Shown: piece after piece, positions 4,902 to 44,174 of the stretch
How the letters are laid out: each line of letters starts with the position of its first letter
How positions within the stretch are numbered: position 1 is the first letter of the stretch
From: an uncultured Verrucomicrobiota bacterium
GTDB lineage: Bacteria; Verrucomicrobiota; Verrucomicrobiia; Opitutales; UBA9783
NCBI GenBank assembly: GCA_946186275.1
Contig: CAMHMO010000001.1
Coordinates: 139,735-203,734, forward strand
Direction of reading: 5' to 3'
DNA: 64,000 nt
Position numbers and translations under genes: made by a program
The notes under the pieces: generated by a model
Seen by the model: the letters and a program-made list of their open reading frames with translations, nothing else
Told to the model about the DNA's origin: nothing
Databases searched by the model: none

Positions 4902-4934
4902 TCTTATAACCGAACCGCCGCTTTTGCACGTATG

Positions 4935-6295: not shown

Positions 6296-6306
6296 TTCCG
6301 AATGTT

Positions 6307-7694: not shown

Positions 7695-7705
7695 TGTATT
7701 TCCTT

Positions 7706-8830: not shown

Positions 8831-8836
8831 AAGATT

Positions 8837-11630: not shown

Positions 11631-11639
11631 GGATAATGA

Positions 11640-12479: not shown

Positions 12480-12604
12480 AGAGTATGGAAATTAGCGTGA
12501 CAAAGGGGTATTACGCGGTATTTTTTAGATGCCATGTAATGTAGGCAATATTGGTAAGTTTTCATAGCAAACGCGCGTGAGAAATTGTCTTTCAGCATAA
12601 GCTT

Positions 12605-13618: not shown

Positions 13619-13621
13619 GAT

Positions 13622-15327: not shown

Positions 15328-15378
15328 ATTGTAGAAGGAAGATCCTCTGAGAAGAAAATTTCTTATGCGCTTTCACAC

Positions 15379-21852: not shown

Positions 21853-23616
21853 GTGCGCCTCGTGCGCCCGTGATCGGAACGTCGAGCAAATCGAATCAAA
21901 ACTGTCGATTTTCGAGCGATCGACTTGTATGTCCGTATTGATCGTATCGATGGCGGTATTGATAAACTGCGTTTTCTTTGAAAAAGCATCCGTCCAGGAA
22001 GAAACGACATCGGTTGTTATTTTATCGTTGTTGTAGAAATATTCATATTCCCGCACGCTGTTCGGGATAACCTTCGCGCAATCGATGCGTGTTGGAAGTT
22101 TGAAGTTTTTCACATAGCCCTTGTCAGCTTCATTCGTGTTTTCGTTATAATAATGATAAACCGCTTTCGCATTCGTCATTTCTACGGTATCAATCGGATC
22201 TTTTGTATCAATAAAAGTCGCCGTAAAAACCCCGGTTTCGTCCAAATCGTAATTATCACAAAAGTTATTTCCGCGCCCATCCCTGTCCGTACCGTTATTA
22301 CCGATCAAAAACCGCATACCGCTCTCGTCTGCCGGTATTAAAAAGCAATAATTACTTTTATCTTTTCGATTGGATTGAAGAACCAGATACTTTTTGTCAT
22401 CCTCTTCATAGAAGTTGTACATACTTCCACCGCATAAATACGTCAGTGCCGTCGCGGCACCGTCGGGAATTCGATGTTTGATATCTTTGCCGTCGGTACC
22501 CGATTGGCTTGAATTCAGGATATTCAGGCCGCGATTGATAAACTCCAAATACGTATTGAGTGCGGAGATGCTTTTCGATTGGATGTTTAAATTTTCGCGC
22601 AACGCCTGAACTTTGACCTCAAAAAACGACGAAACGGCGTTGATCGGACCGTCGCGATCCGTCAAATACCCGACGTAGAACATTTCCAACGCACCAAGGT
22701 GTTTCGTCGCTTCGGTATCTTTGGTGCTTTTCACATCGGGGATACACGGGAAGCCGGTTTCGATGTCATCGGGGAAATTGGTGTAGTCCGTATAACCGCG
22801 ACCGATAAGTTTGTAATAGTAGTAAATGAACTTCATGCGATCGATGAGTGATAACGAACCGAACACCATTATGGGAGCCTTTGCCGTTCCGCCTGCACGT
22901 GAATCCTTGTAAGCGATCAGTGTCGTACGCAAAGCCTCGAGATTGTCATAGTTGGTTATCGAAGCTATCTGTGAACGCACGTCTCCGGCTTCATACAACA
23001 TCTCCATCGGATCTTTGACGATTTCCCACTGTTTTGTATCGTTATTATATTGATGATGTTTCACCAGCGCATCGACCGTTTCATCGGCAAACGTTTTGCA
23101 AACGGACAGTTTATCGATGTAAGCGCGCGCCCTTTGCATTCTCTCATAATCGCTTACATCGGGCAGATCGCTAATTTCCTGCAACTTCTCCAAAGCCGTT
23201 TGGGCTTCGTTAATATATGTGTGCAACATCTGCAGGTAATCCACAATCGATTTGACGTAAAACCGCAACGCCATATACCCTTCGCGACACGTCTCATCAA
23301 CGGCTTTACCGTCGGGCATTCGCGAATCATTATAAATTTCGGAAAGTCTGTTAAAATTATCGCCGTATTTATCAATCGTATCCAAGGAAATAATATATCC
23401 GAGACGATAAAGTGCACCTTTCAGCAGATCGGGATAAGAGGTACCCGTCGGATATTTGCCTGTTGTATCGACGAAAAGTTTTTTGTATTCCGCAACGATT
23501 TCCGAAAGCGATTTATCCGATATATCCGCCACCGATGGTTGCACGCCGACGGTACGAACGTTTTCAATCGGCACAAACGGCTGATTGGATGAAACATCTG
23601 AAATACTTTGGGACAT
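21826..23616 (-). CDS. Orphan 596-aa protein, paralog of 23621..25348
   Basis: No signal peptide and a Ser-rich N-terminus. Shared blocks with its neighbour: YLTDRDGPINAV / YLIDRDGSVNAV, HRIPDGAATALTYLCG / HRIPEGAMNALMYVCG, KVIPNSVREY / KILPNSVRKY, INTAIDTINTDIQV / IQTAIDTVNTDIKV. Confidence 0.7.
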   Translation of the reverse strand: MSQSISDVSSNQPFVPIENVRTVGVQPSVADISDKSLSEIVAEYKKLFVDTTGKYPTGTSYPDLLKGALYRLGYIISLDTIDKYGDNFNRLSEIYNDSRMPDGKAVDETCREGYMALRFYVKSIVDYLQMLHTYINEAQTALEKLQEISDLPDVSDYERMQRARAYIDKLSVCKTFADETVDALVKHHQYNNDTKQWEIVKDPMEMLYEAGDVRSQIASITNYDNLEALRTTLIAYKDSRAGGTAKAPIMVFGSLSLIDRMKFIYYYYKLIGRGYTDYTNFPDDIETGFPCIPDVKSTKDTEATKHLGALEMFYVGYLTDRDGPINAVSSFFEVKVQALRENLNIQSKSISALNTYLEFINRGLNILNSSQSGTDGKDIKHRIPDGAATALTYLCGGSMYNFYEEDDKKYLVLQSNRKDKSNYCFLIPADESGMRFLIGNNGTDRDGRGNNFCDNYDLDETGVFTATFIDTKDPIDTVEMTNAKAVYHYYNENTNEADKGYVKNFKLPTRIDCAKVIPNSVREYEYFYNNDKITTDVVSSWTDAFSKKTQFINTAIDTINTDIQVDRSKIDSFDSICSTFRSRAHEAHSNTAANVR

Positions 23617-23620
23617 ATGA

Positions 23621-25348
23621 TTATTTTTTAATGTTTGAAGCGACTTTCACGTAGGCGGTGTGCGTTCGGTTTCGAAACGTATTGCTTAAAGTATTCAAGG
23701 TGTCGATTTTGTTGCGAAAGACTTTAATGTCGGTATTAACGGTATCGATGGCGGTTTGTATGGACGAAATTTTATCCTGAAACGCCTTTTGCCAGGAAGG
23801 CAATATGTCGGATTTGTCAATGAAAGCGGCTTTGTTAAAATCCGCGTATTTCCGAACGCTGTTTGGAAGAATTTTTTCACACTCGATTGGAAATGACGGT
23901 ACAAAGTCTTTCCCGAAAATTTTTTCCACATCATTATGACGATTGTAGCCGGAAGCCTGATTCGAGCAATGATATGTTGTCGGTTTACCGGAAAATAAAT
24001 CATCGCTGAGAAAGTATAGCTCACGATTGCCATTCCAATGATTATCAACACAGCAGTTCCCGCGATAGCTGTTTGCATCCGCCCTGTCACCGATCAACCA
24101 ATTCATACCGGCATCGTCGGCGGAAATCAGCAGATACTGTCCGTGACTTACATAACCTTCGAGAACCAAACACTTTGTCCCGTCGGATGCTTCCGCCAAC
24201 GGATACATGTTGCAGCCGCACACATACATCAATGCGTTCATCGCACCCTCAGGGATGCGATGTCGCTGCTCCGACGGAATTTCTCCCTTATCATTCGACG
24301 TCACACTTGACTGACTTGCGTTTAAAATATCCAAGGCACGCTGAATAAATTTCAAATAGACATTGAGTGCCTTTATTTTCTCCGATTCCAAGCGAATTTT
24401 TTCAATCAAAGCGGCGGATTTGACCTCCTGATACGACGCAACGGCGTTCACGGAACCGTCACGATCGATGAGGTAACCCATGAAAAAAGGTTCGATCGCG
24501 GCAAGCACATCCGTCTTTGATGCTTCCTTAACGGTCGGTACACCGCGAATCTTGTCGTTCGGAAAAAGCGCATCGGTTTTACCGCTGTCAATGTCGTAAT
24601 ACAATTTGATGTACTTTAAACGATCGAGAAGATTGAGTTCGTTAAAAACTTCGATGTTTTTTTTGCCAAACACAGGCTCCTTTTGATATTCCTGTTTTTC
24701 GTAATCCTGCACCTTCATGGTACGCAATTTATCGTAGGGCTTGTAGGCATTCGGGTCACCATCATGAAACTGCGTATGGGGGGCGTTTGTATAATCATCC
24801 TCATACAGTTTCCAAATGTCCTCGTTCAGGTCATAAATATAACGGAAGCCGAACGTTTCGTGCATCTCCTTCGAAAAACCGTCCAGAATATCCAGCTGAT
24901 CGATAAGCCACTGCGGAAAATCCGCCGTTGCCTGATTTAAAAGCGCGCGCGCTTTAATGATATAATCCCCGAGCTGATTGATTTGTTCGATGATCTGGCG
25001 ACCGTAAAACTTATAGGCATCATTTGCCTGATCGGAATCCACGCAAACATCTCGAATAAAATCCGTAAAATTCACATGGCGATTACGATCCATAGGAATG
25101 TTTTTTCCGAAAATGTCATTCAATTGTTTTAACAGATTGTTCTGAACCTTTTCGTGATTATTGAAAATCTCCGTGTAGTGTATTTTGATATCCTCTGCCA
25201 CAGCCGTATCGGCAACGGATGCCGCACGCAGATTTTTGCGTTCAACCGCCGACAATGATGATCGCGAACCGACGACGACATGCGGATACGTTGCGGGCAA
25301 AGGATTTAAATTCGGAACGGAATATGCCACGGTTTTGCCTTTATTCAA
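23621..25348 (-). CDS. Orphan 575-aa protein, paralog of 21826..23616
   Basis: See paralog blocks above. Separated from its paralog by 4 nt. Confidence 0.7.
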   Translation of the reverse strand: MNKGKTVAYSVPNLNPLPATYPHVVVGSRSSLSAVERKNLRAASVADTAVAEDIKIHYTEIFNNHEKVQNNLLKQLNDIFGKNIPMDRNRHVNFTDFIRDVCVDSDQANDAYKFYGRQIIEQINQLGDYIIKARALLNQATADFPQWLIDQLDILDGFSKEMHETFGFRYIYDLNEDIWKLYEDDYTNAPHTQFHDGDPNAYKPYDKLRTMKVQDYEKQEYQKEPVFGKKNIEVFNELNLLDRLKYIKLYYDIDSGKTDALFPNDKIRGVPTVKEASKTDVLAAIEPFFMGYLIDRDGSVNAVASYQEVKSAALIEKIRLESEKIKALNVYLKFIQRALDILNASQSSVTSNDKGEIPSEQRHRIPEGAMNALMYVCGCNMYPLAEASDGTKCLVLEGYVSHGQYLLISADDAGMNWLIGDRADANSYRGNCCVDNHWNGNRELYFLSDDLFSGKPTTYHCSNQASGYNRHNDVEKIFGKDFVPSFPIECEKILPNSVRKYADFNKAAFIDKSDILPSWQKAFQDKISSIQTAIDTVNTDIKVFRNKIDTLNTLSNTFRNRTHTAYVKVASNIKK

Positions 25349-29693: not shown

Positions 29694-31337
29694 ATGTTTA
29701 TTCGGAAAATAACCATAGAAAATTTCAAAAAATTTCAAAAAAAACGAACTTTTGAATTTAAAGACGGATTAAACATTTTGGTCGGCGACAACGAAACAGG
29801 AAAATCGACCGTTTTGGAAGCCGTTCATTTGGCATTGACGGGATATTATCACGGAAGGGCTCTCGCTTTCGAATTGTCTCAAACCCTGTTCAATAAAAAC
29901 GCAATTGATGATTGGTTGAAATCTGCAGGTAAAGGAATACTGCCGAAGATTATGGTTGAAGTGTTTTTCGGTGACTGTTCCGATGAAATGTTTAAAGGAA
30001 ATCATAATTCCGAAGGAGACGGCAATGCATGCGGAATTAGATTTTCGGTTCTTTTCAACGAAGATTACAAAGAGGAATTGGAAGCGATTGTTGAGTCAAA
30101 AGAAATATCGGGATTGCCGATCGAATACTACGAAGTTCGGTTGGAAACTTTCGCAAGGGAGATCATCACGACACGCTCCATACCGATTAAATCTTTATTG
30201 ATCGATGCCTCCGAGTACAAAGCGGGATATAACGTTTCGGATGTTTATATCTCCAAAATCATAAAAAACCGCCTTGAAGTTTCGGAAAAAATTGCCGTTG
30301 CGCAAGCCATGCGAAGCCTAAAGGGAAAGCTTGGGAAAGATGAAACAATAACGAAGATCAATTGCAAGCTTAACGAGGAACTTGCCGAAACAATCGGGCA
30401 CATCTCTCTCGGTGTAAATATCGGAACCGTAAATGCGTGGGAGAAAGATTTTGTTCTTGAATGCGATGGGATCCCATTGTCGTACAAAGGGAAAGGAACC
30501 CAATGCTTTGTTAAAACGCATTTGGCGTTATCGGACAAAAAGTCCGATACTTCCGACATCATCCTTCTGGAAGAACCCGAAAGTCACCTGTCGTTTTCGA
30601 ATTTAAATCAGTTGCTTCGGTACATCGAAACGAAGTGTGAGAAAAAACAGATCCTGGTGACCACCCACAGTAGCTTTGTCACCAATAAACTTGGTTTAGA
30701 TCGTCTAATCCTTATGAGCGAAAACGAAACCATGAAGATGAACGATTTGCATCCGGATACAAGCAATTTTTTTAAAAAACTGCCCGGTTACGACACGCTT
30801 CGCCTGATTCTATGTAAAGTTGCCATCCTGTGTGAAGGTCGTTCCGACGAATTGATTATTCAGCGTGCTTACCGCGATCGGCACGGACACTTGCCGATTG
30901 AGGACGGCATTGATGTCATTTCGTGCGAAGGATTAAGTTTTTTGCGATTTCTGGAAATTGCGGATAAGTTGAAATTAAAAGATGTGCGTGTCGTTACCGA
31001 TAATGACGGTGACGTACAAAAATTAGAAAAAAAGTACGAAAATTATTTGTATAAAAACAAGAAGGACAACATCAAGATTTGCTACGATCAAGACGTAAAT
31101 CCCCGAGGTGAAAACGATCCTGAAAACTATAACCCGAACACATTGGAATCGAATTTGTTAAAAGCAAACGATCTTAAAACACTGAACGCGATATTCGGTA
31201 GAAACCGTAAAGACGAATGCGAACTGGGAAAATATATGCAACAGAACAAAGCCGAATGCGCTTTAAAGATATTTGAAAGTTCCGAGAAAATTAACTATCC
31301 GAAGTATATACAGGATGCCGTCACATTCCCAAAATAG
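29694..31337 (+). CDS. gajA: OLD-family nuclease (ABC-type ATPase plus TOPRIM), GajA-like
   Basis: Walker A LNILVGDNETGKST, Walker B IILLEEPESHLS, TTHS, TOPRIM AILCEGRSDE and VRVVTDNDGD. Confidence 0.85.
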   Translation: MFIRKITIENFKKFQKKRTFEFKDGLNILVGDNETGKSTVLEAVHLALTGYYHGRALAFELSQTLFNKNAIDDWLKSAGKGILPKIMVEVFFGDCSDEMFKGNHNSEGDGNACGIRFSVLFNEDYKEELEAIVESKEISGLPIEYYEVRLETFAREIITTRSIPIKSLLIDASEYKAGYNVSDVYISKIIKNRLEVSEKIAVAQAMRSLKGKLGKDETITKINCKLNEELAETIGHISLGVNIGTVNAWEKDFVLECDGIPLSYKGKGTQCFVKTHLALSDKKSDTSDIILLEEPESHLSFSNLNQLLRYIETKCEKKQILVTTHSSFVTNKLGLDRLILMSENETMKMNDLHPDTSNFFKKLPGYDTLRLILCKVAILCEGRSDELIIQRAYRDRHGHLPIEDGIDVISCEGLSFLRFLEIADKLKLKDVRVVTDNDGDVQKLEKKYENYLYKNKKDNIKICYDQDVNPRGENDPENYNPNTLESNLLKANDLKTLNAIFGRNRKDECELGKYMQQNKAECALKIFESSEKINYPKYIQDAVTFPK

Positions 31338-32544
31338 AAAATACTCAAACGGCAGGATCATTGTTGCGGCAGCGGGTTCGGGAAAAACAACATACATCGT
31401 CGAAGAGGCATTGAAAAAACACAAAACACTTGATCCATATAAACGTATTTTGATAACGACCTTCACTGATAAGAACGAAGAGGAAATCAGAAAGAAAATA
31501 ATAAAAAAACACGGTTGCATACCGCAGAATATCATCGTGCAAACCTGGTTTTCGTTCCTGTTGCAACACGGCGTTCGTCCGTATCAGGATACCTTGTTTC
31601 CCATATTGAGTGACGAACGAGTTAAAGGGATATCGCTTGTCAATCAACAATCGGCGAAAGGAATAAAAGAAGGAGATTTGTTTTATTATTTCACGAAAGA
31701 TTTTCGCATTTACACGGATAAACTTTCAAAATTCGTGTGTAAAACAATCGAAAAAGAGAAAAAAGAAGACGGAAATCTTACGCCGGGACGCATTAAAAAC
31801 ATTTTTCCGAAGATTTATATCGACGAAATGCAGGATTTGGCAGGATACGATTTGGATTTTGTCGAACTTTTAATCGAAGAAGGCGTCGAAATAACACTCG
31901 TCGGCGACCCGAAACAACGCACCTATCTTACAAATTACGGAGGAAAAAACAAAACAGAGAAGGATGGTCGTCAAAGTGCGATGGAATTTTTTAAAGGTAA
32001 GATCGAAATCGATAAAACGACGCTGAACGGATCATGGCGAAATTGCCAAGAAATTTGTGATTTTGCCAATAGAATACACGATGGAAAATTTAAAGCATGT
32101 AAATCCAAGGCAGAACAAAGTTCGGATTTCGATTCAAAGAAATATGATGAACATCACGGCATATGGATCGTAAACGAGGAATATGTTTCAAAGTATTGCA
32201 AAAAATACACTCCGAATATATTGCGCCATAATAAAAAAATAAAAATCGATCTGTGTCATAACGAAAGTGATATTTTCAATTTCGGTTTATCAAAGGGATT
32301 AACATTTGATCGGGTTCTTATTTATCCGACAGAAGGAATAAAGAAATGGCTGAAAAATCCGTCGTCCTCTTACAAAGAGAAAGCCGAAAACAAATGCGAT
32401 CGTTCCGCATGTGCATTCTATGTTGCCGTAACGCGGGCACGTTACAGCGTTGCGTTTGTTTGCGACAAGAAATGGATCAATGAAATTTTTTCGGCACCAT
32501 CACTTTTCCAATCCGAACAACCATACAAACTTTTCGAGATATAA
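31315..32544 (+). CDS. gajB: UvrD/Rep-like SF1 helicase, GajB-like
   Basis: Trimmed to MPSHSQ (ATG 31315, overlapping gajA by 23 nt). AAAGSGKTT, TFTDKNEEEI, IYIDEMQDL, LVGDPKQRT, VAVTRARYSV. Confidence 0.8.
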   Translation: MPSHSQNRKYSNGRIIVAAAGSGKTTYIVEEALKKHKTLDPYKRILITTFTDKNEEEIRKKIIKKHGCIPQNIIVQTWFSFLLQHGVRPYQDTLFPILSDERVKGISLVNQQSAKGIKEGDLFYYFTKDFRIYTDKLSKFVCKTIEKEKKEDGNLTPGRIKNIFPKIYIDEMQDLAGYDLDFVELLIEEGVEITLVGDPKQRTYLTNYGGKNKTEKDGRQSAMEFFKGKIEIDKTTLNGSWRNCQEICDFANRIHDGKFKACKSKAEQSSDFDSKKYDEHHGIWIVNEEYVSKYCKKYTPNILRHNKKIKIDLCHNESDIFNFGLSKGLTFDRVLIYPTEGIKKWLKNPSSSYKEKAENKCDRSACAFYVAVTRARYSVAFVCDKKWINEIFSAPSLFQSEQPYKLFEI

Positions 32545-32667: not shown

Positions 32668-34185
32668 TTATTTCTCTGTCAACAGAGCATATTCTTCCTC
32701 AAAATCCTCCGTCAACGTCGGCTTCTTTATTTCCAAAACATCATACCATTGATTACATTTATCCAACTGTTCGATTTTACTCCGACAAACATTTCGCATG
32801 AGTGTGTCGTAGTAAAAAAACATCTTCCGATAGCCGTCGCATTTACCCGTGAGCGATGCGTAATTGGCAAGCAGTGCCTCCCTGCGATCGTTCTCGGAAA
32901 TACAATTCACCGCTGTCTTGCGTTCCATCCTGCGTTTTTCCTTCACCGAAAGATGCGAAAATTTGTTTATCTCTTTTTTTAACCCGCCGATTTTGTCCGA
33001 CAAATCATCAATCTCGTCCTGCAACTCTTCCGCATCCTGCGGTTCGTCGCTTTTTTGCATATCTTTAAGTAACCGCTTTTGTTCCTTTTTAAGCTTCCTC
33101 AGTTCTCTTGTTTTTTCGACAATTCCGTATTGGCATTTCGCCTTTTGCTCTTTTTTCCCCTTAAAATCCTCCTGCGCCTGCTTTCTTGCCGCTTTCTCCT
33201 GCGCTCTGAATTTTTCGGAAGCCCTCAAACGGGCATCAAAATTTTCCTTTTTCGGCTCATTCAAAGAAGTATTAGAATTTTTTTCCGAAACTTTTCCGAG
33301 AATTGAACACATTCGTTCCAATCGCCCCAAAATCTTCCCGTTCAACTCTTTTAAACCGTAAACCGCTTTTCCGTACAGATCTCCCGTCGTCTTCGCATAA
33401 ATTCGCAATTTCTCATCCGGTGAACGAGCGTTATCAATCTCAACCTTGGCATTCGCCGTCATCGCATCCGATCGGCGGAAACAGGTTTCGAAAGATTTTT
33501 GAAACATGTTCACATTCTGAACCAACGGACTGTCGTTACTCTTCTTCGTCAGCTCATTGTAAACATCCCTTTTTGCAAAAGATTTCATCAGCTCCGCCAA
33601 AACTTTATCACAGGGCTTTTGTTCGATTGTTTCCGACAATCCGTCCGTTCCGAACGTTTTCGCAAATTCCGAAACGGCACAATGCACAAACACGAACATA
33701 CGGCGCACAAAAGCACCGTAACATTCCGTCGTCACAACTCCGTCGATTGTACCGAAATCCGCAGTTAAATTCCACGCTCTGCCGATGTAATCCGAAACAC
33801 ACAAACATAAATCGCGGTTGAGACGCAAAAAACAAAGTGCGCTTTTGACAGCACCGTTTGATGTTTTAATTCTCCCGTTCAAACGAATCGTTTCCGATTT
33901 TCGAAGATCGTCATACTTCTTGACTATTCCGTACGCATGCGTTCGAAAATCCGAATAAAGCATTTTACAGTCTTTATAAAGTTCATAATATTCTCCCCAC
34001 AACAACGGATCTTCATGATTTTTTTGAGGAAATCGCTCGGGTGACAATATGCTTAGCAGATCTGCCTCAAAATCCGCCCTCGAACTCACTGCACCCGTTC
34101 CGAGACACAGCGCAACCAACACAATCCCTCTCCGAAACATCTTATTCATCTCACTCATGGTAATGTGGTTTTTTTCGAGATGCAA
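32668..34185 (-). CDS. Secreted protein with Lys/Glu-rich coiled-coil region, unknown function
   Basis: Signal-peptide-like MNKMFRRGIVLVALCLGTGAVSSRA, a central KQAQEDFKGKKEQKAK..KLKKEQKRLLKD stretch, and a Cys-containing C-terminus. The start is probably internal to the listed ORF. Confidence 0.6.
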   Translation of the reverse strand: MHLEKNHITMSEMNKMFRRGIVLVALCLGTGAVSSRADFEADLLSILSPERFPQKNHEDPLLWGEYYELYKDCKMLYSDFRTHAYGIVKKYDDLRKSETIRLNGRIKTSNGAVKSALCFLRLNRDLCLCVSDYIGRAWNLTADFGTIDGVVTTECYGAFVRRMFVFVHCAVSEFAKTFGTDGLSETIEQKPCDKVLAELMKSFAKRDVYNELTKKSNDSPLVQNVNMFQKSFETCFRRSDAMTANAKVEIDNARSPDEKLRIYAKTTGDLYGKAVYGLKELNGKILGRLERMCSILGKVSEKNSNTSLNEPKKENFDARLRASEKFRAQEKAARKQAQEDFKGKKEQKAKCQYGIVEKTRELRKLKKEQKRLLKDMQKSDEPQDAEELQDEIDDLSDKIGGLKKEINKFSHLSVKEKRRMERKTAVNCISENDRREALLANYASLTGKCDGYRKMFFYYDTLMRNVCRSKIEQLDKCNQWYDVLEIKKPTLTEDFEEEYALLTEK

Positions 34186-34357: not shown

Positions 34358-36196
34358 ATGCATGTGGAAACAACATCCAAAACACTTACAATTGTAGCGG
34401 TATGCACGTTGCCGATCACGGGTTACGCGGGTCGTGCCATGACCTTGAAAGAACTGAACGCGTTTCTGGAAGGACTGCGTACGGAGGGGCTTAAAAACCT
34501 GGAGCCGTTGTGCGAGAAAATAGAAAAAACGAGAGGTGTTTTTCATGCGACAGAATGCATGCATTTTGAAGATTTCGGCGACGATTGGTACAAAGATCTG
34601 CCGAAAGACAGTGAACAGGATAAAAAGCAGAAGAGAGAACTGAAAGAAACTTTCCTGAGGGAACACAAGGAAATTCCGGATCAATCGAACAGTTATCTTG
34701 GTTTAAATTCGGATGAAGCGGATCGAGTCAAAAGTGACGCCCTTAACGCGCTTGATGCAGTTACCTTTGGCGGCGTGGGAAGGTTTTTGTCGACCGTTAC
34801 AAAGATAGAGTACAATGCCGACGGCGAACCGGTTTCCATCGAAGCAATCGACAGATTTCCCTCTCTTATCGATATTCGATTGGATGAACTGAGTTCGCCC
34901 TTCCATCCTTACATCATCAAGCAACGCGATCCGAAGGCAACGGACGAACGTCTCGAAGCTTTTTCGCAAGTATTGACCTCGGATGACTTGAAACAACGCA
35001 ACATTGATGTCGAAACACTGAAAACACTCGGCATCGAAACGATTCGGGAAATCACGTTCGATTCAATCCTCAAAAGTAAAATTTTTACCAAAACACAGAG
35101 AGATAAGGCTCAAGAATGGTTTCGCAATCCCGCTGGACTTGAAAAAGCGATCGAGAATTATGCGGGGACTTATCCGTGGATACAGAAAAACATCAGCTGT
35201 ACATTCAAAAGCCGATCGATTGCAGCCGAAAAAGTATTGGATTGGGAAAAGAAGACCATCCGTTTTAAGGATAAAATTACCGAATTCCCGCTTACATTAT
35301 CCTATCTTACCTCGAAGCTCCCTGATGAAACCTCCGAAGTGCAAAAGCAAATAGAAACATTTTTGAAAAATCTGTTGCCTTACAAAAACGGCAAAGAAAA
35401 GGTCATTCTTTTGCTCCTTTTGGATGAAATTACCCCGTCCGAGTATCGTCTGAAGTGGATGCATGATGGCGGCGAGCATGCCAATGGTGCTTACGATCTG
35501 CGCGGCAATGCATTTTGTTTCAGTTTCAAAGGAGAAACGAAATGCTTGTCTCACGAAATCGGGCATTATTTGCAGATGCATTTGGGTTTATACCAAGCCT
35601 TCGATGATTACCAAACGTCGTTTGCAAAGCAACTCCTGCAATTGGAAAACAAGCAAACGGATGAATCGATAACGATTCCGAGCATGATAAAGGATGATAT
35701 TGAATTCGGCAACGAACCGGCTTTTTGGGGATTGAAGGATCTTTGTATTAAATGCCCAGAACAGCTTTCGGCAAAGAAGTTTTTCGAATATTGGCAACTC
35801 GTCAAGCGTTGGCACTCGATTATGGAAGTTTCCAATATCCTCGGGGTTTATTTCAAAGGAAACACGCTTTACATCAATGCCCTGTCGGATATCCGCGAAC
35901 TTAAACGCATCCGTTATACGCATAACCGCCGACTAAGCAAAAAGGAAATAGGATATGAAAAAGATAACTTTAAGGAAGAGGCAGACAAAGCATTGTTCGG
36001 GAAAATTATCGAAGAAGCTTATCGATATCCCGTACCGACGAAGATGTTAAGCTTGCTGTGTCGACTGCACCAATGCAAAAACCCGAACGAAGATGCAAAA
36101 AACGTCGTGTGCGATTTTGATCTTGCCGATGGCAAAGAGAAATGGAACGAGAAGGTGAGTCCTTTGATTTCGGAATATATTGAAGCCGAACCGTAA
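34358..36196 (+). CDS. Secreted HExxH protein, unassigned putative zinc metalloprotease family, paralog 1
   Basis: Hydrophobic N-terminus, CLSHEIGHYLQMHLG, and conserved downstream block WHSIMEVSNILGVYFKGNTLYINALSD. Confidence 0.65.
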   Translation: MHVETTSKTLTIVAVCTLPITGYAGRAMTLKELNAFLEGLRTEGLKNLEPLCEKIEKTRGVFHATECMHFEDFGDDWYKDLPKDSEQDKKQKRELKETFLREHKEIPDQSNSYLGLNSDEADRVKSDALNALDAVTFGGVGRFLSTVTKIEYNADGEPVSIEAIDRFPSLIDIRLDELSSPFHPYIIKQRDPKATDERLEAFSQVLTSDDLKQRNIDVETLKTLGIETIREITFDSILKSKIFTKTQRDKAQEWFRNPAGLEKAIENYAGTYPWIQKNISCTFKSRSIAAEKVLDWEKKTIRFKDKITEFPLTLSYLTSKLPDETSEVQKQIETFLKNLLPYKNGKEKVILLLLLDEITPSEYRLKWMHDGGEHANGAYDLRGNAFCFSFKGETKCLSHEIGHYLQMHLGLYQAFDDYQTSFAKQLLQLENKQTDESITIPSMIKDDIEFGNEPAFWGLKDLCIKCPEQLSAKKFFEYWQLVKRWHSIMEVSNILGVYFKGNTLYINALSDIRELKRIRYTHNRRLSKKEIGYEKDNFKEEADKALFGKIIEEAYRYPVPTKMLSLLCRLHQCKNPNEDAKNVVCDFDLADGKEKWNEKVSPLISEYIEAEP

Positions 36197-36238
36197 AGAC
36201 GATTATATTTAGTCGAAACTCTTGTATTCAAAAGACTT

Positions 36239-37831
36239 ATGAAAAAAATCACAAAAACCATCGGGTATATCGGGCTGTCGGCTGCCTTGTTGCGCATGCC
36301 GCATGGGCAGGCGGTTACGTTGACCGAACTGAACGAACATCTCGCACAGTGGCGTGAAAAAAGCATCGCAAACTTGAAGAAGTTTCTGGAAAAAATAAAG
36401 GATGTTCCTTGCTCAGATGAAAAGATAGGCAAAGCAAAGACACTTCTTGAAAAATACGAGAAGAGTCAGATCACATGTGCGAACAAAGAAGGGAAAGTAA
36501 TGACTATCGAAACATTTGGCTTTATACCTTCAGCTCGCGAAACTTCTTTCTCTGCGTATCAAGAAGAGAAATGGAACGAGTGGCGCAGCAAGGGAAAGGG
36601 AAATCCGCTTGATGTCTTTTCTACCAAAGAATTATCCGAAGATGAATTACGAGAAAGAAACGTCGATATCAAAGAAATACAAAAACTTGGAATTACGTCG
36701 GTTCGGGAAATTACATTCAACTCAATCCTGGGAAGTGATTTTTTCAACAATGACCAAAGGAAATTGGCAAACACATGGTTGAACGATGAACAGGCGCTGC
36801 AAAAAGAAATCGAAACATACGTAACTCGGTGTACGTTTTGGGACAGAAATTTTTTTGACACATTAATCATTACGAATACAAGTTTCGAGAATACAACCTC
36901 TCAACTTGTAGAATATATTCCATATCCTTTCCTTACACCTGCAAACGAAGGTGCGGTCCCCGAATTGCGCAAAAAAACGGAACTCGGTCTGAAAAATATG
37001 TTGTCTCGCAAAAACGGAAAAGAGAAAGTTATTTTATTCCTTCTTTTGGAGGAAAATATGCCCGAAAATGCTCGTGCAAAATGGAGATATCATTCCGATA
37101 AAAACAAACATCTCGGGCGATACAATTCGAAAGATAATTTATTTTCATTCATCGACGACGTTGACGGAATGAGAGCACTTTCGCACGAAATCGGACATTT
37201 CCTGCAGGAACATTTAGGCTTCCGTCAAACTTTTGAAGATTACGGAACGCAATTTGCAAAAAATCTGTTGCTGTTGGAAAACGACTACACGGAAAATGAT
37301 ATTTTCAATATGCCGCAGTGCATACAGAATGTCTTAAACAGATTTTATGATCACAAGAATATTGAAACAGAGACAGAATATACGCCGAATTTGAAACAAC
37401 TTTCAAAAAAAACGTGCTTTGAATATTTTCAACTTACGGCACGATGGAGAAAAAGTTGTGAAATTTCCAACATGCTCGGGGTGTATTTCAAAGGCAATAC
37501 GCTTTACATTAATACCTTATCGGATTTTCACGAATACGATGTTATATTTTACGGACATGAATATAAGATTAATAATGAATCGGTGGAAAAAATCTCCTCG
37601 GAATTAGAAGATGAAAAAACAAAAAAAGCGTTTTCGGATATCCTGGGAACAGCATATCAAAAATCCGTACCGACTAAAATGTTAGAACTATTATGGCACT
37701 TGCATAACAGAAACCATCTCAAAGGTAACGGAAACCATCCCAAAGGTATTGAATGTCCCTTGAATTATCAAAATCGAAATGCTTTAAAAGAAAAACTCGA
37801 TTCATACGGAGATTTTTTAAAAAAACCGTAA
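36239..37831 (+). CDS. Secreted HExxH protein, paralog 2
   Basis: Signal peptide MKKITKTIGYIGLSAALL, ALSHEIGHFLQEHLG, WRKSCEISNMLGVYFKGNTLYINTLSD. Colinear with paralog 1 (e.g. RNIDVETLKTLGIETIREITFDSIL / RNVDIKEIQKLGITSVREITFNSIL). Confidence 0.65.
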   Translation: MKKITKTIGYIGLSAALLRMPHGQAVTLTELNEHLAQWREKSIANLKKFLEKIKDVPCSDEKIGKAKTLLEKYEKSQITCANKEGKVMTIETFGFIPSARETSFSAYQEEKWNEWRSKGKGNPLDVFSTKELSEDELRERNVDIKEIQKLGITSVREITFNSILGSDFFNNDQRKLANTWLNDEQALQKEIETYVTRCTFWDRNFFDTLIITNTSFENTTSQLVEYIPYPFLTPANEGAVPELRKKTELGLKNMLSRKNGKEKVILFLLLEENMPENARAKWRYHSDKNKHLGRYNSKDNLFSFIDDVDGMRALSHEIGHFLQEHLGFRQTFEDYGTQFAKNLLLLENDYTENDIFNMPQCIQNVLNRFYDHKNIETETEYTPNLKQLSKKTCFEYFQLTARWRKSCEISNMLGVYFKGNTLYINTLSDFHEYDVIFYGHEYKINNESVEKISSELEDEKTKKAFSDILGTAYQKSVPTKMLELLWHLHNRNHLKGNGNHPKGIECPLNYQNRNALKEKLDSYGDFLKKP

Positions 37832-37954
37832 TATATTTGCCAAAATTCCGAACGCCGGAAACAGCTGAAAAGTATTGTTGGAAGTCTGCGAAAAGTAAGA
37901 AATTTTTTGCTTTATCACAGTCGGATGTAGTATCAGCGGAAATTATTTAAACAC

Positions 37955-37981
37955 AAAAAGCGGGCAATAAACCCGCTTTTT
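37955..37981. terminator. Bidirectional rho-independent terminator between convergent genes
   Basis: AAAAAGCGGG-caataaa-CCCGCTTTTT. Confidence 0.8.
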
Positions 37982-38005
37982 GCACGACATGAGATAACAA
38001 ATTCT

Positions 38006-40699
38006 TTACGAACGCGCCTGTTTCAAGGCCGCCTGAGCGCATGCCAGACGTACAATCGGGATGCGTTTCGGGGCACAACTCACATAATCCAAGCCGACGT
38101 TGTGGAAAAATTCGACCGAACGCGGATCGCCGCCGTGTTCGCCGCAAACACCCAATTCCATCTTCGGTTTGACGGCACGCGCGCGCTTCACGGCAAATTT
38201 GACCAGTTCCCCTACCCCGTCAACATCGATGGATGCAAACGGATTTTGCGTGAAAATTTCGCAATCCGTATAGGCTTTGAAAAACTTCCCCATATCGTCG
38301 CGACTGATACCCAACGTGAGTTGTGTCAGGTCGTTTGTGCCGAAGCTGAAAAAGTCGGCGACTTCGGCAATGTTCGCCGCGCGTACCGTTGCACGCGGAT
38401 TTTCGATCATCGTTCCGAGTTTGTACGGAATTTCAATGTTTCGTTCGGCGCAGACATTTTTATGAATGTTGCGAATGACCTTCGCCTGGTGTTCAAATTC
38501 CTTCACGAACCCGACCAGCGGCAACATAATCTCCAAAGACACCTTTATGCCCGACGACAAAACCTCCGCGACGGCTTCGAAAATCGCCCGAGCCTGCATC
38601 TCGGTAATTTCGGGGTACGAAATGCCCAGACGGCAACCGCGATGCCCCAACATCGGATTTTGTTCTTTCAACGCATCGGAACGACGTTTGATTTCATCCA
38701 TCGACAAACCGATCGCTTTGGATAATTCCGCAATCGTCTCCTCATCGTGCGGCAAAAATTCGTGCAACGGCGGATCCAGAAGGCGGATAATCACCGGATG
38801 CCCCTTCATGGCTTTGAAGATGCCGACAAAATCCTCCCGTTGCAATGGAAGCAGTTTATCCAAAGCTTTACGACGCGCCGCTTCATTATCGGCTAAAATC
38901 ATTTCCCTCATCGCATCAATGCGATGCCCTTTGAAAAACATATGCTCCGTGCGACACAAACCGACGCCTTCCGCGCCGAACGCAAACGCCAACGCGGCTT
39001 GATCGGGCGTGTCGGCATTGGTGCGAATGCCTAATCGACGATAACCGTCGCTCCAATGCATGATTTTGTGAAACATGCGATAAGTTGCGCTCTTATCCGC
39101 ATCCAAAGTACCGTTCAGCACCTGCATCACCTCCGACGGAGCCGTCTTTATCGCGCCGCCGAACACTTCGCCCGTGGAACCGTCGATGGAAATAAAATCC
39201 CCTTCGCGCAAAACAGTTTTGCCGCAGGTTAAGCTTTTTGCGTCGTAATCAATCCGTACATTGCCCGCGCCGCAAACACAAACTTTTCCCATCTGACGTG
39301 CCACCAAAGCCGCATGGGAACTGACACCGCCGCGGCTCGTCAGAATACCTTCGGCGACCAGCATGCCGCGTAAATCCTCGGGGGAGGTTTCGGCGCGGCA
39401 CAAAACAACCTTATCACCTTTTTTGGCAAGCTCTTCCGCGCGATCCGCCGTAAAAACAACCTTTCCGCAGGCGGCACCGGGACCAGCGGGTAATCCGACG
39501 GTCACGGGAGAAGCTTTTTTCTTTTCATCCGCATTAAAAATCGGCACCAACAGCGTTGCAATCGATTCTGCGGGAATGCGCAACAGAGCCGTTTTTTGGT
39601 CAATGAGCCCTTCCTGCACCATATCCAGGGCAATACGCACCGCCGCAAGACCCGTCCGTTTGCCGTTGCGGGTCTGCAGAATAAATAAATGCCCGTCCTC
39701 GACGGTAAATTCGAAATCCTGCATGTCGGTAAAACGTTTCTCCAAAACGGAACGCACTTCCAGCAGTTCCCGATAGGCATTCGGCATTTCCCGCTCCAAA
39801 TCCGCCATCGGGTGCGGCGTCCGAATACCCGCCACTACATCTTCACCCTGCGCATTGATGAGATATTCGCCGTAAAATTCATTCGTACCGTTGGCGGGAT
39901 TGCGCGTGAACGCCACGCCCGTCGCACTCGTGTCGCCGGCATTGCCGAACACCATCGACTGAACATTCACCGCCGTTCCCCAATCCGACGGGATATTGTA
40001 CTTATGACGGTACAAAACGGCGCGTTCGTTGAACCAGGAACCGAAAACCGCCCCCACCGCGCCTTCCAGTTGTTCGAAAACGTCCTGCGGGAACTCGTAC
40101 CTTTTTTCTTTGCGTACCAGTTCTTTGAAGCGGACGATGATGTTTTTCAAGTCGTCGGCATCCAATTCGGTATCGAACTTGACTCCTTTGTTCTTTTTGG
40201 CATCCGATAGAATTTCGTCGAACGGATCGAGATCGCTTCCGGCACCGATATTCATGACGACATCGCCGTACATTTGAATAAACCGACGGTAACAATCGTA
40301 TGCAAAGCGCGGATTGTTCATCTTCTTAGCAAAACCCTCCGTTGTTTGGTCGTTTAAACCCAGGTTTAGAACCGTATCCATCATGCCGGGCATCGATTCG
40401 CGCGCGCCGGAACGCACCGAAAACAACAGCGGATTGGACGGATCGCCGAAGGTTTTGTGCAACTGGGCTTCGACGTTTTTAATGGCATCTTTTATCGCCG
40501 CCTTTAATTCTGGCTTAATCTTCTTGTCGGACTTGTAATAATCCAGACACATTTCGGTGGTAATCGTAAACCCGGGCGGCACCGGCAAACCGATGCGCGA
40601 CATTTCCGCCAAATTCGCACCTTTGCCTCCGAGCAATTTTCGCATCGCGGCATCACCGTCCGTGTGTGCCCCGAACTCATACACCATCTTGTCCTCCAT
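38006..40699 (-). CDS. ppdK: Pyruvate, phosphate dikinase
   Basis: Trimmed to [10 protein letters not shown]... [28 protein letters not shown], phosphohistidine site [16 protein letters not shown]-terminal GLDYVSCAP. Confidence 0.95.
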
Positions 40700-40871
40700 A
40701 AGCAGAAACCCTGTAAATTTAGTATAAGATTGACCGAGTTGAAAGTCAATCAATGCGTAGGGCACAAAAAACCGCACAAGATTGCAACACGTACGGTTCG
40801 TAAAGAAAAGACCGCAAACGCCCGACGTTTAAATTCGGGCGTATTGCAAAAACAAGAACTCTCCGAAGTAA

Positions 40872-42218
40872 TTACTTCTTGGAAAACTTCCCGTCGGAAG
40901 CATCGTGCATCTTTTTAAGCTTCCGATACCATTCCTCATCTGCCTTCACCGATTCCATATATGATCGGCGACAGTCAACCTGGGCACTTCCGCTTATATA
41001 TGAAATATTGAACGCCGCCGAAATCGCTTTCAAATAATACGGCATATCCTCTTTTTTTTCACTTTGTTCGCCCTTCCCTTTCTCCTCATCATCGCTGTCG
41101 GAAAACTCAATCATTTTTTCCCCGACGCTGCGATCCTCTTGTATCAGCTTATTTTGCCTGCCGGCAAAATCCTTCAAACGCTCTTTACTATCGTAGATGT
41201 AAGATCGCATAAAAAGCGGTTTATGATACGGAATGCCACTCCGACCGCCTTTTCCTAAATCCGGAAACACGAAATCAGACAGTTCATTGATATACACAAC
41301 GCCGTCGATTTCGATAAAACCAAGCATGTTCCATGCTTCTTCGATCGTATCCCAATCCATGGCAACCGCAGGGCACTGATTATAAATCGCTTCCACACTG
41401 CGCTCCGTCACGGGATCCGAAGAAAAATCTTTCGGCAGTTGATACACATCCCGAATGAATTTTGTTGTATAGGAGCACAAAGCGGGATCGCCCGACAAGC
41501 CCAATTCATAGTATAGCGCGTGTCTTATTTCGTGCGCCAAAAGGGAATGATGGAAAATCTCATCTTCCGTAAAATGAATAACATAACGCCGATCGTTCCC
41601 GACCGCTTTAATGTAACAAAAACCGCTGCTTCCACCCATGAATTTCAGCTCAGTCTTGTCTTTAAGCAAAAAATCATAAAGCGCCAATACCTGTTTTGAT
41701 TTCTCCCACCACGGCTTTAACAGCAGACATGCCAAAAAACTTCTTTTCTTGTTCTCAATCGCACTCAACGGCAAAGGGGAAAAATCGTAAATCCTATCCT
41801 CGGTATCGCGGAAGCAGAACGAACAGGGAATTGCTTCTATGCAACGCTCCAGCACTTTTTTGTAATCCTTGATGCACCCGTCAAAATCAAACGTACTCGC
41901 GGTTTTGCCAAAAGCTTCGCTCTTTTTGATCCCTTCACAAATGGTTTCAAACGAAACCACTCGAAATGTTTCGTTATACCCCAAATCCCTGAGCTTTTGC
42001 AATCGCTCTTTGTCGACTTCCTCCAACGGTCGCGAGTACTGCAGAAACGCCTCTTTGGTACTCCTCTGCGGCGGTAATTCCAGCAATGAGTAAGGCTCGC
42101 CGAAGACGGACGAAGCGGTTGCGAAACTGATGCAACCCAACGACGCGACATGATACAGTGTTTTACCGATGCTCATATTCGATACTACAATGGAAAGCAG
42201 AAAATTTTTGAATGACAA
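40872..42218 (-). CDS. Secreted HExxH protein, divergent paralog 3 of the 34358/36239 family
   Basis: Hydrophobic N-terminus, SLLAHEIRHALYYELG, and WDTIEEAWNMLGFIEIDGVVYINELSD matching the family block. Confidence 0.6.
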   Translation of the reverse strand: MSFKNFLLSIVVSNMSIGKTLYHVASLGCISFATASSVFGEPYSLLELPPQRSTKEAFLQYSRPLEEVDKERLQKLRDLGYNETFRVVSFETICEGIKKSEAFGKTASTFDFDGCIKDYKKVLERCIEAIPCSFCFRDTEDRIYDFSPLPLSAIENKKRSFLACLLLKPWWEKSKQVLALYDFLLKDKTELKFMGGSSGFCYIKAVGNDRRYVIHFTEDEIFHHSLLAHEIRHALYYELGLSGDPALCSYTTKFIRDVYQLPKDFSSDPVTERSVEAIYNQCPAVAMDWDTIEEAWNMLGFIEIDGVVYINELSDFVFPDLGKGGRSGIPYHKPLFMRSYIYDSKERLKDFAGRQNKLIQEDRSVGEKMIEFSDSDDEEKGKGEQSEKKEDMPYYLKAISAAFNISYISGSAQVDCRRSYMESVKADEEWYRKLKKMHDASDGKFSKK

Positions 42219-42332
42219 AGTTATTCTTTAAAATCAGCTAAGCGTGAAAAATCACTACCACAATCGCTCCGTTAATAACAATCAACTTTTCCAAAATCAC
42301 CGCTTATCTTTATAATAGAGAAACCGACCACC

Positions 42333-44174
42333 GTGGATCCGCTTGACGTACGGAAAACAAACTTCGGACGCATTCGATTTCTTCAATGCGTCAGCGGTGT
42401 TTTGTTTTTCATTCTGTTTGTCGGCATCGTCTATCGACAATACGGACAGTTTTATTTGTACAACAAACTCGACAACCGCCAATGCCTGCGTCGGATTTTA
42501 CAACCGGGCATGCGCGGAAAAATTTACGACCGCAACGGACGGATTTTGGCAACACACCGCGACAGTTACTGTCTGTACGTCGACCTCAACGCGTTTCGCA
42601 AACCCTTCGAGTTGTTTTGCAAAAAGAACCGCGCTCCCTCCCTGCAACGCGAACAACTGTGGGCGTTGGTGAACGATGCACTTTTGCCATACGCGCGCCA
42701 AATCGGCGATATTCCGTTTAAAATTTCGCCCAAAAAGCTGTTGCAGCATTATCACCAAAACATCCTGTTGCCGTTGAAAATTGCCTCCGATCTGCCGCAA
42801 GCAGTCTATGCCCGACTGTTGACAATCCTTCCGACGGAAAGCCCTTTCCAAGTCGGCGTCGAATACATTCGTCATTATCCGTACGGCTCTTCCGCCTGCC
42901 ACGTGCTGGGGTACGTGACCCGAACATCGGAGTTGGATGCCGAGCATCTGCCGGGAAACGGCCTGCGAACGTTCTTTTTGCCGCGCGAAAAAGGACAAAC
43001 GGGCATCGAAGAGCAGTACGACGAGTATTTGAGCGGTTGCAACGGCGGCGAAATCTGGCGCGTCACACCGTCGGGACAAAAACAGCAAAAATTGCTTTCC
43101 GTCCCAAGCGTCAACGGATCATCCTTGACGTTATCGCTGGATATCGATTTGCAACGGGTTTGTGAACATGCGCTGGAGGAATATAAAAAAGGTTCCGTTT
43201 CGGTGATCGACCTCGCAAGCGGCGGCGTTTTGGCGATGGTCAGTACGCCGGGATTTGATTTAAACGAACTGACGCCGTTTGTGTCGCCGGAAGTTTTCGA
43301 AGACATCAATGCGCGCGAAGCCTGGTTCAATCGCGCCGTTCAAGGACTTTATCCACCCGGCTCAACTTTCAAGGTACTTTCGATGTCCGCCTTCCTTCGC
43401 AACGGCATCGTCGACGCACACACGACGTATGATTGTACGGGGACGTATCGCATTGCGCACCGCAATATCCGATGCCACAAGCGCGGCGGGCACGGATTAC
43501 TCAATACGATGCAGGCAATTCAATTCAGCTGTAATCCGTTTTTTATCCACTACGGAATGCGTTTGGGCGTTGAAAAATTGTACGACGAAGCCTGCCGTTA
43601 CCGTCTCGACCGACCGACGGGAATTGATTTGCCGCACGAAACACACCGCCTTTGTATTCCGTCGCCGCAATGGAAGCGCAAAAAACTGCACGACGGCTGG
43701 GCACAAGGCGACACGGCAAACATGGTGATCGGGCAAGGTTACACGCTGGTTACGCCGTTTAAAATGGCGTGTTTCGCAGCGGCACTGGCGAAAAATCAAA
43801 CTTTTTTTACGCCGCATTTTGCCGAAATCGAAACCGACGGTATCGCTCCGTCTGCCCCCCTGCCTCAAACGGCACTGTCGACGATGCACCGCGGTATTTT
43901 AAGAAACGGCATGCGCAAAGTCGGCGAACGTTATATTTCCTTCGTGCCGACGGCATTAAAAACGGGAACGGCGCAGGTCAAAGTCGCCCACACCGATCGT
44001 TACACGCATATCGGTTGGATGATCGGCTATGCTCCGATGGACAATCCGAAGATCGCCTTCTGCATCCAAATCGAACAGGAAGGCACGGATGATGATTTTT
44101 GGGGCGGTCAGGTATGCGCACCCGTCGCAAGGGCGTTTTTGGAGCGTTATTTTGAAAAGAAAAGGGGAAAATAG
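42333..44174 (+). CDS. mrdA: Class B penicillin-binding protein (PBP2-like transpeptidase)
   Basis: N-terminal TM, RGKIYDRNGRILA, SxxK PPGSTFKVLS, SxN FSCNPFF, KTG LKTGTAQV. Confidence 0.75.
   Translation: MDPLDVRKTNFGRIRFLQCVSGVLFFILFVGIVYRQYGQFYLYNKLDNRQCLRRILQPGMRGKIYDRNGRILATHRDSYCLYVDLNAFRKPFELFCKKNRAPSLQREQLWALVNDALLPYARQIGDIPFKISPKKLLQHYHQNILLPLKIASDLPQAVYARLLTILPTESPFQVGVEYIRHYPYGSSACHVLGYVTRTSELDAEHLPGNGLRTFFLPREKGQTGIEEQYDEYLSGCNGGEIWRVTPSGQKQQKLLSVPSVNGSSLTLSLDIDLQRVCEHALEEYKKGSVSVIDLASGGVLAMVSTPGFDLNELTPFVSPEVFEDINAREAWFNRAVQGLYPPGSTFKVLSMSAFLRNGIVDAHTTYDCTGTYRIAHRNIRCHKRGGHGLLNTMQAIQFSCNPFFIHYGMRLGVEKLYDEACRYRLDRPTGIDLPHETHRLCIPSPQWKRKKLHDGWAQGDTANMVIGQGYTLVTPFKMACFAAALAKNQTFFTPHFAEIETDGIAPSAPLPQTALSTMHRGILRNGMRKVGERYISFVPTALKTGTAQVKVAHTDRYTHIGWMIGYAPMDNPKIAFCIQIEQEGTDDDFWGGQVCAPVARAFLERYFEKKRGK

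Follow-up and report, generated by a model that had tools for sequence, protein, structure and literature searches.

Tandem HExxH proteins in a reduced-genome Opitutales bacterium: a candidate new family of Sec-exported, gluzincin-like metallopeptidases

The 64,000-nucleotide stretch analysed here, called the window in the following (positions 139,735 to 203,734 of contig CAMHMO010000001.1, assembly GCA_946186275.1), derives from an uncultured Verrucomicrobiota bacterium of the Opitutales family UBA9783. At 34358 to 37831 it carries two adjacent genes for proteins with an HExxH motif, which a preliminary description of this DNA had taken for secreted, gluzincin-like proteins of a host- or community-associated bacterium. 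The locus raises the question of what kind of proteins these are and what such a bacterium would need them for. The answer favoured here, with a probability of about 60%, is that they belong to a new family of gluzincin-like zinc metallopeptidases, restricted to one lineage and exported by the Sec pathway, in a symbiont that is probably intracellular or otherwise cell-dependent and lives with a rumen eukaryote.

A tandem pair and a third copy with a conserved HExxH motif and distal glutamate

The pair comprises the following features:

34358 to 36196, forward strand: long paralog, open reading frame of 612 aa for a predicted exported HExxH protein (slot 1 of the pair)
36239 to 37831, forward strand: short paralog, open reading frame of 530 aa, predicted exported HExxH protein in slot 2
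34358 to 34438, forward strand: predicted Sec signal peptide of the long paralog, aa 1-27, ending in TLTIVAVCTLPITGYAGRA and followed by MTL (manual reading of n-, h- and c-regions; hydropathy maximum KD10 2.27)
36239 to 36313, forward strand: predicted Sec signal peptide of the short paralog, aa 1-25, MKKITKTIGYIGLSAALLRMPHGQA, followed by VTL (manual reading, low model confidence in this part)
35552 to 35566, forward strand: HEIGH of the long paralog, aa 399-403, invariant in family alignments
37184 to 37198, forward strand: HEIGH of the short paralog, aa 316-320, inside the predicted helix 308-326 (alignments and AlphaFold model)
35810 to 35890, forward strand: distal block of the long paralog, WHSIMEVSNILGVYFKGNTLYINALSD, aa 485-511, with Glu490 as candidate third zinc ligand (alignments)
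37445 to 37525, forward strand: distal block of the short paralog, WRKSCEISNMLGVYFKGNTLYINTLSD, aa 403-429, with Glu408 in the predicted helix 406-413, followed by a predicted beta-hairpin at 415-425 (alignments and AlphaFold model)

Both reading frames are present exactly as they had been described, and the colinear paralogy claimed for their products was confirmed with 37% identity over 434 residues (BLASTP, E = 2e-75). The genes are separated by 42 nt, in which no terminator-like site was found, and they are therefore probably co-transcribed. The long paralog contains HEIGHYLQMHLG at aa 399-410 and the short paralog HEIGHFLQEHLG at aa 316-327. A conserved block, W(H/R)xxxE(V/I)SN(I/M)LGVYFKGNTLYIN(A/T)LSD, follows at aa 485-511 and 403-429, respectively, and its Glu, already named earlier as a candidate ligand, is located 91 residues (long) and 92 residues (short) past the first His. 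A toxin/immunity pair was ruled out, as both genes are paralogs sharing their motifs and no small gene adjoins them.

The signal-like N-termini proved to have a Sec-type layout in both proteins, in which a basic n-region is followed by a hydrophobic core (10-12 residues) and by small residues at -3 and -1 (GRA before Met in the long and GQA before Val in the short paralog). This layout of a type I signal peptide is common to most of the approx. 40 family members that were read. The N-terminus was disordered in both AlphaFold models, which were those of the short paralog and of the third paralog introduced below, and the predicted local distance difference test (pLDDT) stayed below 50 for residues 1-23 of the 530-aa protein. 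Lipoproteins were ruled out: there is no lipobox and the Cys in the h-region is not preceded by L-[AS]-[GA]. No transmembrane segments were found in the HExxH proteins beyond the signal peptide, nor was there any anchor, repeat or C-terminal sorting signal.

A third, divergent paralog in the window had been missed by the preliminary description, as had four further copies elsewhere in the genome. It sits across the pyruvate phosphate dikinase (PPDK) gene from the pair:

40872 to 42218, reverse strand: third paralog; 448 aa in the longest open reading frame, or 434 aa if translation begins, as is likely, at Met15 (matches the long paralog in BLASTP with E = 6e-8)
41520 to 41534, reverse strand: HEIRH of the third paralog, aa 229-233 (motif position)
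41274 to 41354, reverse strand: distal block of the third paralog, WDTIEEAWNMLGFIEIDGVVYINELSD, aa 289-315, with Glu294 located 65 residues past the first His (alignments)

Its motifs read HEIRHALYYELG and IEEAWNMLGF...YINELSD. The protein forms a subfamily of its own with 25 clusters, and this subfamily was aligned to the main one by hhalign with a probability of 96.8% over the core from HExxH to LSD.

Conservation was analysed in alignments of increasing breadth, with H316, E317, H320 and E408 numbered as in the 530-aa short paralog. HEIGH, as noticed earlier in both proteins, was invariant in 35 out of 35 relatives of the pair (alignment A1), and the distal Glu was kept in 34 of them, the remaining row being gapped at this position. 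Since they are kept to this extent, the two motifs are not due to chance. In the merged alignment of both subfamilies (A3, n = 54), H316, E317 and H320 were invariant, and among 45 diverse members from the whole family (A5) the sole invariant columns were H316, E317, H320, E408 and G414. HExxH is present in all close orthologs and in 104 out of 111 full-length members, while the residues of the site as a whole (HExxH and distal Glu) are kept in 104-106 of these 111. At least 85% of the full-length members also share S128, R156, F160, I163, L266, G327, F339, W403, N411, Y423, S428 and D429.

In one remote subclade (P0115, P0119, P0120 and P0131), HExxH is replaced by Y-D/T-x-x-E/D, and in two of these four members the distal Glu is changed to N or D. 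HExxH and the distal Glu are thus decaying jointly, which fits residues that form one site and pseudo-enzymes that arose from a family of enzymes. The Glu of HExxH, which is no ligand, is as conserved as both His residues and therefore argues for catalysis and not for metal binding alone. The extra His of HEIGHxLQxH is found at +9 in one subfamily only and is located at +7 or absent in other clades. It was rejected as third zinc ligand, since it is unconserved outside one subfamily and would be positioned on the opposite face of a continuous helix predicted to extend to residue 326. For similar reasons, the proteins are not considered to be metzincins, which are marked by HExxHxxGxxH/D and a Met-turn: in HEIGHxLQxHLG, the extra His stands at +9 and not at +10, it occurs in one subfamily only, and the helix is predicted to run through.

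This pattern of conservation also bears on another possible use of the HExxH/Glu site. The metal might have a structural role, as in an adhesin or another surface protein, or the site might hydrolyse amides other than peptide bonds, for instance in the cell wall. The invariant Glu317 would be superfluous if the role were purely structural, the joint loss of the site residues in one subclade fits a split into enzymes and pseudo-enzymes, and the proteins have no anchor, repeat or C-terminal sorting signal. Such a use would be compatible with the large conserved N-terminal region (S128, R156, F160 and I163), which has no known function, with a fast evolution resembling that of surface antigens, and with the lack of a significant fold or profile link to any peptidase. 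Where HExxH and a distal Glu are both placed on helices, the combination marks a peptidase in the overwhelming majority of cases, and a non-peptidase use is on these grounds regarded as quite unlikely.

Predicted structure and relation to known families

The AlphaFold models of the 530-aa protein (mean pLDDT 81.2, predicted template modelling score 0.83) and of the third paralog (mean pLDDT 81.7, predicted template modelling score 0.81) have the same order of elements, i.e. two helices, three beta-strands, a long HExxH helix, a variable insert, a Glu helix and a beta-hairpin that ends in Y-x-N-x-L-S-D. According to DSSP, the three strands (281-305 in the 530-aa protein and 189-217 in the third paralog) directly precede the HExxH helix (308-326 and 224-239, respectively). 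In both models, HExxH is thus placed on a long and confidently predicted helix after a three-stranded sheet, as the comparison with gluzincins had implied. A backing helix, a three-stranded sheet, an active-site helix and a glutamate helix follow one another in this order in minimal gluzincins. Glu408, which is invariant and located on the predicted helix 406-413, is proposed as the candidate third zinc ligand.

For the short paralog, a mechanism can be proposed from these models. The signal peptide would be cut after about residue 25 and the mature protein would fold as a single compact unit, in which the backing helix and the three-stranded sheet (281-305) would lead up to the active-site helix (308-326). 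Zinc would be held by His316 and His320 together with Glu408 from the later helix (406-413), and Glu317 would act as the general base that activates a water molecule. The substrate cleft may be lined by the edge of the sheet and by the conserved N-terminal region (R156, F160 and I163).

The earlier statement that the proteins cannot be placed in a named family held in all database searches. Pfam and NCBIfam gave no match at threshold for the three window proteins, PADLOC had no model for the HExxH proteins, and sequence-profile searches of the PDB with A1 and the merged A3 returned chance matches only (tail protein, NepR and SPOP). When Pfam was searched with all 54 aligned members at E ≤ 10, and also with 10 remote or long members, nothing reached the threshold. 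Below it, the peptidase matches among the 54 members were Reprolysin_5 (five members, best E = 0.0024), Zn_peptidase (three members) and Peptidase_M78 (one member), and the remote members gave M78 and M3 at E of approx. 0.08. When 1.84 billion cluster representatives were searched exhaustively with a HMMER profile, only 98 family clusters were retrieved at E ≤ 0.001. Iterating the search with remote members added nothing, yielded no informative name and did not connect the proteins with any annotated family. No profile supported the faint likeness to M34 or M48 peptidases that had been suggested: Peptidase M34 (ATLF) was not matched by the pair at E ≤ 1 and was not among the families shown for the 54 members at E ≤ 10, and Peptidase M48 (PF01435) was matched neither by the window proteins nor by the 54 members or the remote members.

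Minigluzincins and the M48/M56 peptidases (proabylysin, projannalysin, HtpX/Ste24 and the sensor domain of BlaR1) resemble the predicted arrangement in that their HExxH helix follows a backing helix and a three-stranded sheet and their third ligand is a Glu on a separate downstream 'glutamate helix', located 65-92 residues on in the present family. However, no profile or significant fold match to them was obtained, and the family adds a conserved N-terminal region of approx. 200 residues, a variable insert of 65-130 residues and the Y-x-N-x-L-S-D hairpin. Moreover, its members are predicted to be soluble and Sec-exported and not membrane-embedded. Recurrent weak local matches around the HExxH helix pointed to ImmA/IrrE (M78, PF06114) and SprT-like zincins (Pfam E = 0.05-0.08, two members), and the same likeness appeared in the family of PDB entry 6CZ6 and in viral models. 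The best M78 matches had E values of 0.053 and 0.081 with 13 bits versus a cut-off of 22 and were confined to two remote members. In contrast to the HExxH family, ImmA/IrrE and SprT-like proteins are small, cytoplasmic, involved in regulation or DNA repair and devoid of a signal peptide, and all matches were far below threshold. The best-ranked zincin among the structural hits to the third paralog (ranks 4-5) was BACCAC_01431 (PDB 4L7A), which comes from the gut bacterium Bacteroides caccae and is likewise a putative metallopeptidase with HExxH. This hit was not significant (E = 1.1, template modelling score 0.14-0.26, 9-14% identity), and 4L7A is half the size and has no sequence relationship to the family.

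Several points weigh against an interpretation as exported zinc peptidases. No profile ties the family to any peptidase family. Foldseek gave no hit at E ≤ 0.001 with the two models against the PDB and one of them against BFVD; the best E values were 0.84 and 0.39 (PDB) and 0.03 (BFVD, a viral library). The fold was thus left without a significant counterpart, and a zincin fold is put forward as a candidate. A non-protease HExxH enzyme, the oxygenase 8S5F, was also among the weak hits. The signal peptides were called by eye plus hydropathy and are absent in five remote members out of the approx. 40 read, and the passage of the proteins across the outer membrane is assumed. Finally, no SBP_bac_5 (OppA-type) peptide-binding protein was found in the genome, which weakens a purely nutritional role.

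Zincins were frequent among the short, low-rmsd weak Foldseek hits, namely a cold aminopeptidase and LTA4H (M1), a Grifola peptidase (M35), collagenase G (M9), the ImmA-like 6CZ6 regulator, 4L7A, hatching enzyme, meprin and viral IrrE-like and SprT-like models. This enrichment and the predicted topology support, but do not prove, a zincin-like core within an otherwise unmatched fold. The hit to 8S5F would be in line with HExxH-type iron/2-oxoglutarate oxygenases like ChlB-HExxH, as this structure was retrieved with the third paralog at E = 4.3-6.1. The hit was not significant, however, with an rmsd of 19-21 Å, and no HExxH-hydroxylase model was matched in NCBIfam. The lineage is described as fermentative rumen anaerobes (PMC12306168). 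Sec export of an enzyme dependent on oxygen and 2-oxoglutarate is implausible, and an oxygenase is thus considered extremely improbable.

Copy number and variation between strains

The genome (1,019,407 bases in 16 contigs, 91.6% complete) was searched with the family profile in all open reading frames. A second tandem pair was found at C1:132122-133831 and 133894-135540, and a further copy at C6:45032-46586 consists of two overlapping reading frames with a frameshift at a run of seven G (approx. C6:46002-46008) just upstream of HEIGH. Altogether, four copies, one of them split, exist beyond the three of the window. This amounts to about seven per genome, and the seven copies account for approx. 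0.95% of its length. Intact orthologs of the split copy (L021-L023) do not have the G run at the frameshift site, and 26 G/C runs of 7 or more occur in the genome. The split could be due to phase variation, a pseudogene or a homopolymer error in the assembly.

The ratio of non-synonymous to synonymous substitution rates (dN/dS) was determined for window genes according to Nei-Gojobori, in comparison with the close strain L018:

Long paralog: 0.30
Short paralog: 0.21
PFOR: 0.07
PPDK: 0.05
PBP2: 0.10

The family genes are therefore under purifying selection, yet their proteins change 3-6 times faster than those of the neighbours. Along 34358-44174, synonymous divergence from the same strain was very uneven: the short paralog had a dS of 0.04, PPDK and the long paralog had values of 0.23-0.26, and PBP2 and PFOR reached 0.45-0.52. 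This mosaic points to recent recombination between strains.

In L007 and L008, PFOR, PPDK and PBP2 are 93-95% identical to the window's proteins. The positional orthologs of the long paralog are 86% identical in L018 and 76% in L007, and identity drops to 42-46% in L008. For the short paralog, the protein in slot 2 of L007 is 38% identical, versus 95% for the flanking PPDK. The third paralog is 67-69% identical to its counterparts in L007 and L008. The number of genes varies as well, with three copies in tandem in L008 and L019 and a second copy of the third type in L007. In L018, an additional T in a T5 run (T5/T6) splits the third paralog (16529-17825, reverse strand), whose gene is intact in the window. 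The split reflects either turnover of the family by frameshift or an assembly error. In a maximum-likelihood tree of 117 members, well-supported clades specific for the slots were obtained. The long paralog belongs to a supported 'long' clade, and the short slot is held by two deep branches.

These data can be set against a role as periplasmic housekeeping proteases in envelope quality control, like that of BepA or HtpX, with which a Sec signal peptide and residence in the periplasm would be compatible. Proteases of this kind are single-copy, slowly evolving and widespread. The family, with approx. seven copies and its 3-6 times faster change than neighbouring genes, differs in all these respects, being absent from about 290 other Opitutales genomes, and no match to Peptidase_M48 or TPR was found. 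A housekeeping role is thus very improbable, and it ranks with the non-catalytic and oxygenase explanations among the less likely ones.

Distribution, genome context and possible role

The named relatives of the family are rumen metagenome-assembled genomes labelled Opitutales or Verrucomicrobia. Among 301 Opitutales genomes sampled across the order, the family was present in nine, eight of them in the family-level group of the window and one in another group. All nine have a size of 0.7-1.1 Mb, and the family was absent from the large-genome Opitutales of this sample. Overall, its occurrence is limited to Opitutales with genomes of 0.7-1.3 Mb. Three or four copies were found in a more distant genome of 0.9 Mb (GC 38%, SecA 43% identical). 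A remote member of 747 aa (P0156) is encoded on a 5.5-kb metagenome contig (L016) together with a Rep3-type plasmid replication gene, which suggests that some members travel on plasmids.

Opitutales with reduced genomes are common in ruminant guts and uncultured, and it is debated whether they are free-living scavengers or symbionts (PMC12306168 versus PMC11257099). UBA9783 from farm-animal guts were described as amino-acid auxotrophs that use PPDK and PFOR and have no flagella, and they are reported to import peptides and amino acids. No secreted proteases were annotated in this study, the one genomic study of the lineage (PMC12306168). Reduced Opitutales families have been placed among protist endosymbionts (PMC11257099), and a preprint predicts UBA9783 to be symbionts.

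The genome itself strengthens the host-associated lifestyle that had been proposed for the bacterium. Within approx. 1 Mb, it contains two genes for ATP/ADP translocases (TLC/NTT; C3:35993-37468 and C7:15173-16639, both reverse strand, E = 1.8e-180 and 1.9e-132), which had no match in 14 control genomes. Such translocases are a hallmark of energy parasitism and intracellular life. Homologs of FHIPEP (FlhA/SctV) and FliP (SctR) are encoded among housekeeping genes (C6:68612-70711 and C3:92532-93245, both reverse strand), and no flagellar rod/hook domain (Flg_bb_rod) was found anywhere in the genome. By analogy with Chlamydiae, they may belong to a scattered, non-flagellar type III apparatus. 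Three secretins are present, as is an operon resembling a type II secretion system (T2SS) at C8:16086-27644 (4086-15644 of locus L024, reverse strand). The operon encodes at least three pseudopilins, a PilN/GspL-like protein, an 856-aa secretin with a weak match to the N0 domain of GspD, a 574-aa GspE-type ATPase and GspF.

Two groups of known proteases offer comparisons for an export towards a host. ProA of Legionella (M4) and CPAF of Chlamydia are proteases of intracellular bacteria that have Sec signals and act on host proteins; they are analogous in role and unrelated in family, and a T2SS-like machine is present here. The type III effectors NleD (M91) and NleC (M85) are HExxH zinc proteases, and type III export genes are found in this genome. 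However, they have no Sec signal peptides, unlike the HExxH family, and no Pfam match to Peptidase_M91 or M85 was obtained.

Exported zinc peptidases might serve nutrition only, by digesting environmental or host proteins for an auxotroph and without specific targets. Signal peptides and the T2SS-like operon would fit this role, as would the reported absence of amino-acid biosynthesis from reduced Opitutales, their import of peptides and amino acids and the lack of annotated secreted proteases (PMC12306168). Enzymes for bulk digestion, however, rarely diverge to 38% identity where the housekeeping proteins of the same genomes stay at 95%. It would also be unusual for them to show recombination mosaics, a copy number in flux or deep allelic branches at a single slot, and no oligopeptide-binding protein of the SBP_bac_5 type was found in this genome. 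Nutrition as the sole purpose therefore appears unlikely.

For the favoured interpretation as exported peptidases of a cell-dependent symbiont, the T2SS-like machine on contig C8 offers a possible route by which the folded proteins would exit the periplasm. The approx. seven paralogs per genome, being specific for their slots and fast in diverging, would probably each cleave different proteins of a host or partner cell. The purpose could be the manipulation of the host or the release of peptides; we lean towards a specific interaction over mere peptide release, given the speed and pattern of evolution and the absence of an OppA-type binding protein. A more far-reaching version is put forward tentatively and appears possible rather than probable, namely that the family represents a structurally new peptidase clan, confined to reduced Opitutales inside protists of the rumen or other guts, where it would have evolved, and that its members form a diversifying set of weapons against host proteins which the T2SS-like machine secretes. 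If true, it would comprise the first candidate enzymes of host interaction for this lineage of verrucomicrobial endosymbionts, in which ATP/ADP translocases and a scattered, chlamydia-like type III apparatus of non-flagellar kind would occur as well.

With approx. 1% of the genome devoted to it, the family is under selection, diversifying and predicted to be exported, and it is thus a concrete candidate for the dealings of the bacterium with a host or partner. Provided that the proteins are active, MEROPS and Pfam would gain a new peptidase family, perhaps one with a new fold. The two nucleotide transporters, the type III export genes without a rod and the T2SS-like operon also speak for an intracellular life in the rumen in a way that can be tested.

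Upstream of the pair, between PFOR and the HExxH genes, a complete Gabija defence system is inserted:

29694 to 31337, forward strand: GajA, OLD-like ATPase and TOPRIM (PADLOC, E = 3.8e-186)
31273 to 32544, forward strand: GajB, UvrD-like helicase (PADLOC, E = 3.2e-112)

Gabija is found in L007 (60-63% identity) and is absent from the close strain L018, and it is therefore regarded as a mobile islet. A protease of a defence island tied to Gabija was considered and rejected, as L018 keeps the pair without gajA and gajB and no PADLOC match was obtained for the HExxH proteins. The closeness of the two is thus incidental.

Between Gabija and the pair, a gene at 32668-34185 on the reverse strand, divergent from the HExxH genes, encodes a protein of 505 aa that has a signal peptide and contains a long coiled coil of charged character. 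Apart from a weak JetC/MukB-like coiled-coil hit, it had no family match. In L009 and L019, and not in L007 or L018, relatives of it precede the HExxH array. The protein may be a variable partner or merely another gene of the island.

Another tandem pair is encoded at 21826-23616 and 23621-25348, both on the reverse strand. Its products of 596 and 575 aa are 34% identical to each other, gave no Pfam match and have polar N-termini without a signal peptide. A third copy is found at C1:26373-28595, and the proteins evolve fast, with a dN/dS of 0.21-0.25 against L018. These proteins look effector-like and belong to a different family from the HExxH proteins.

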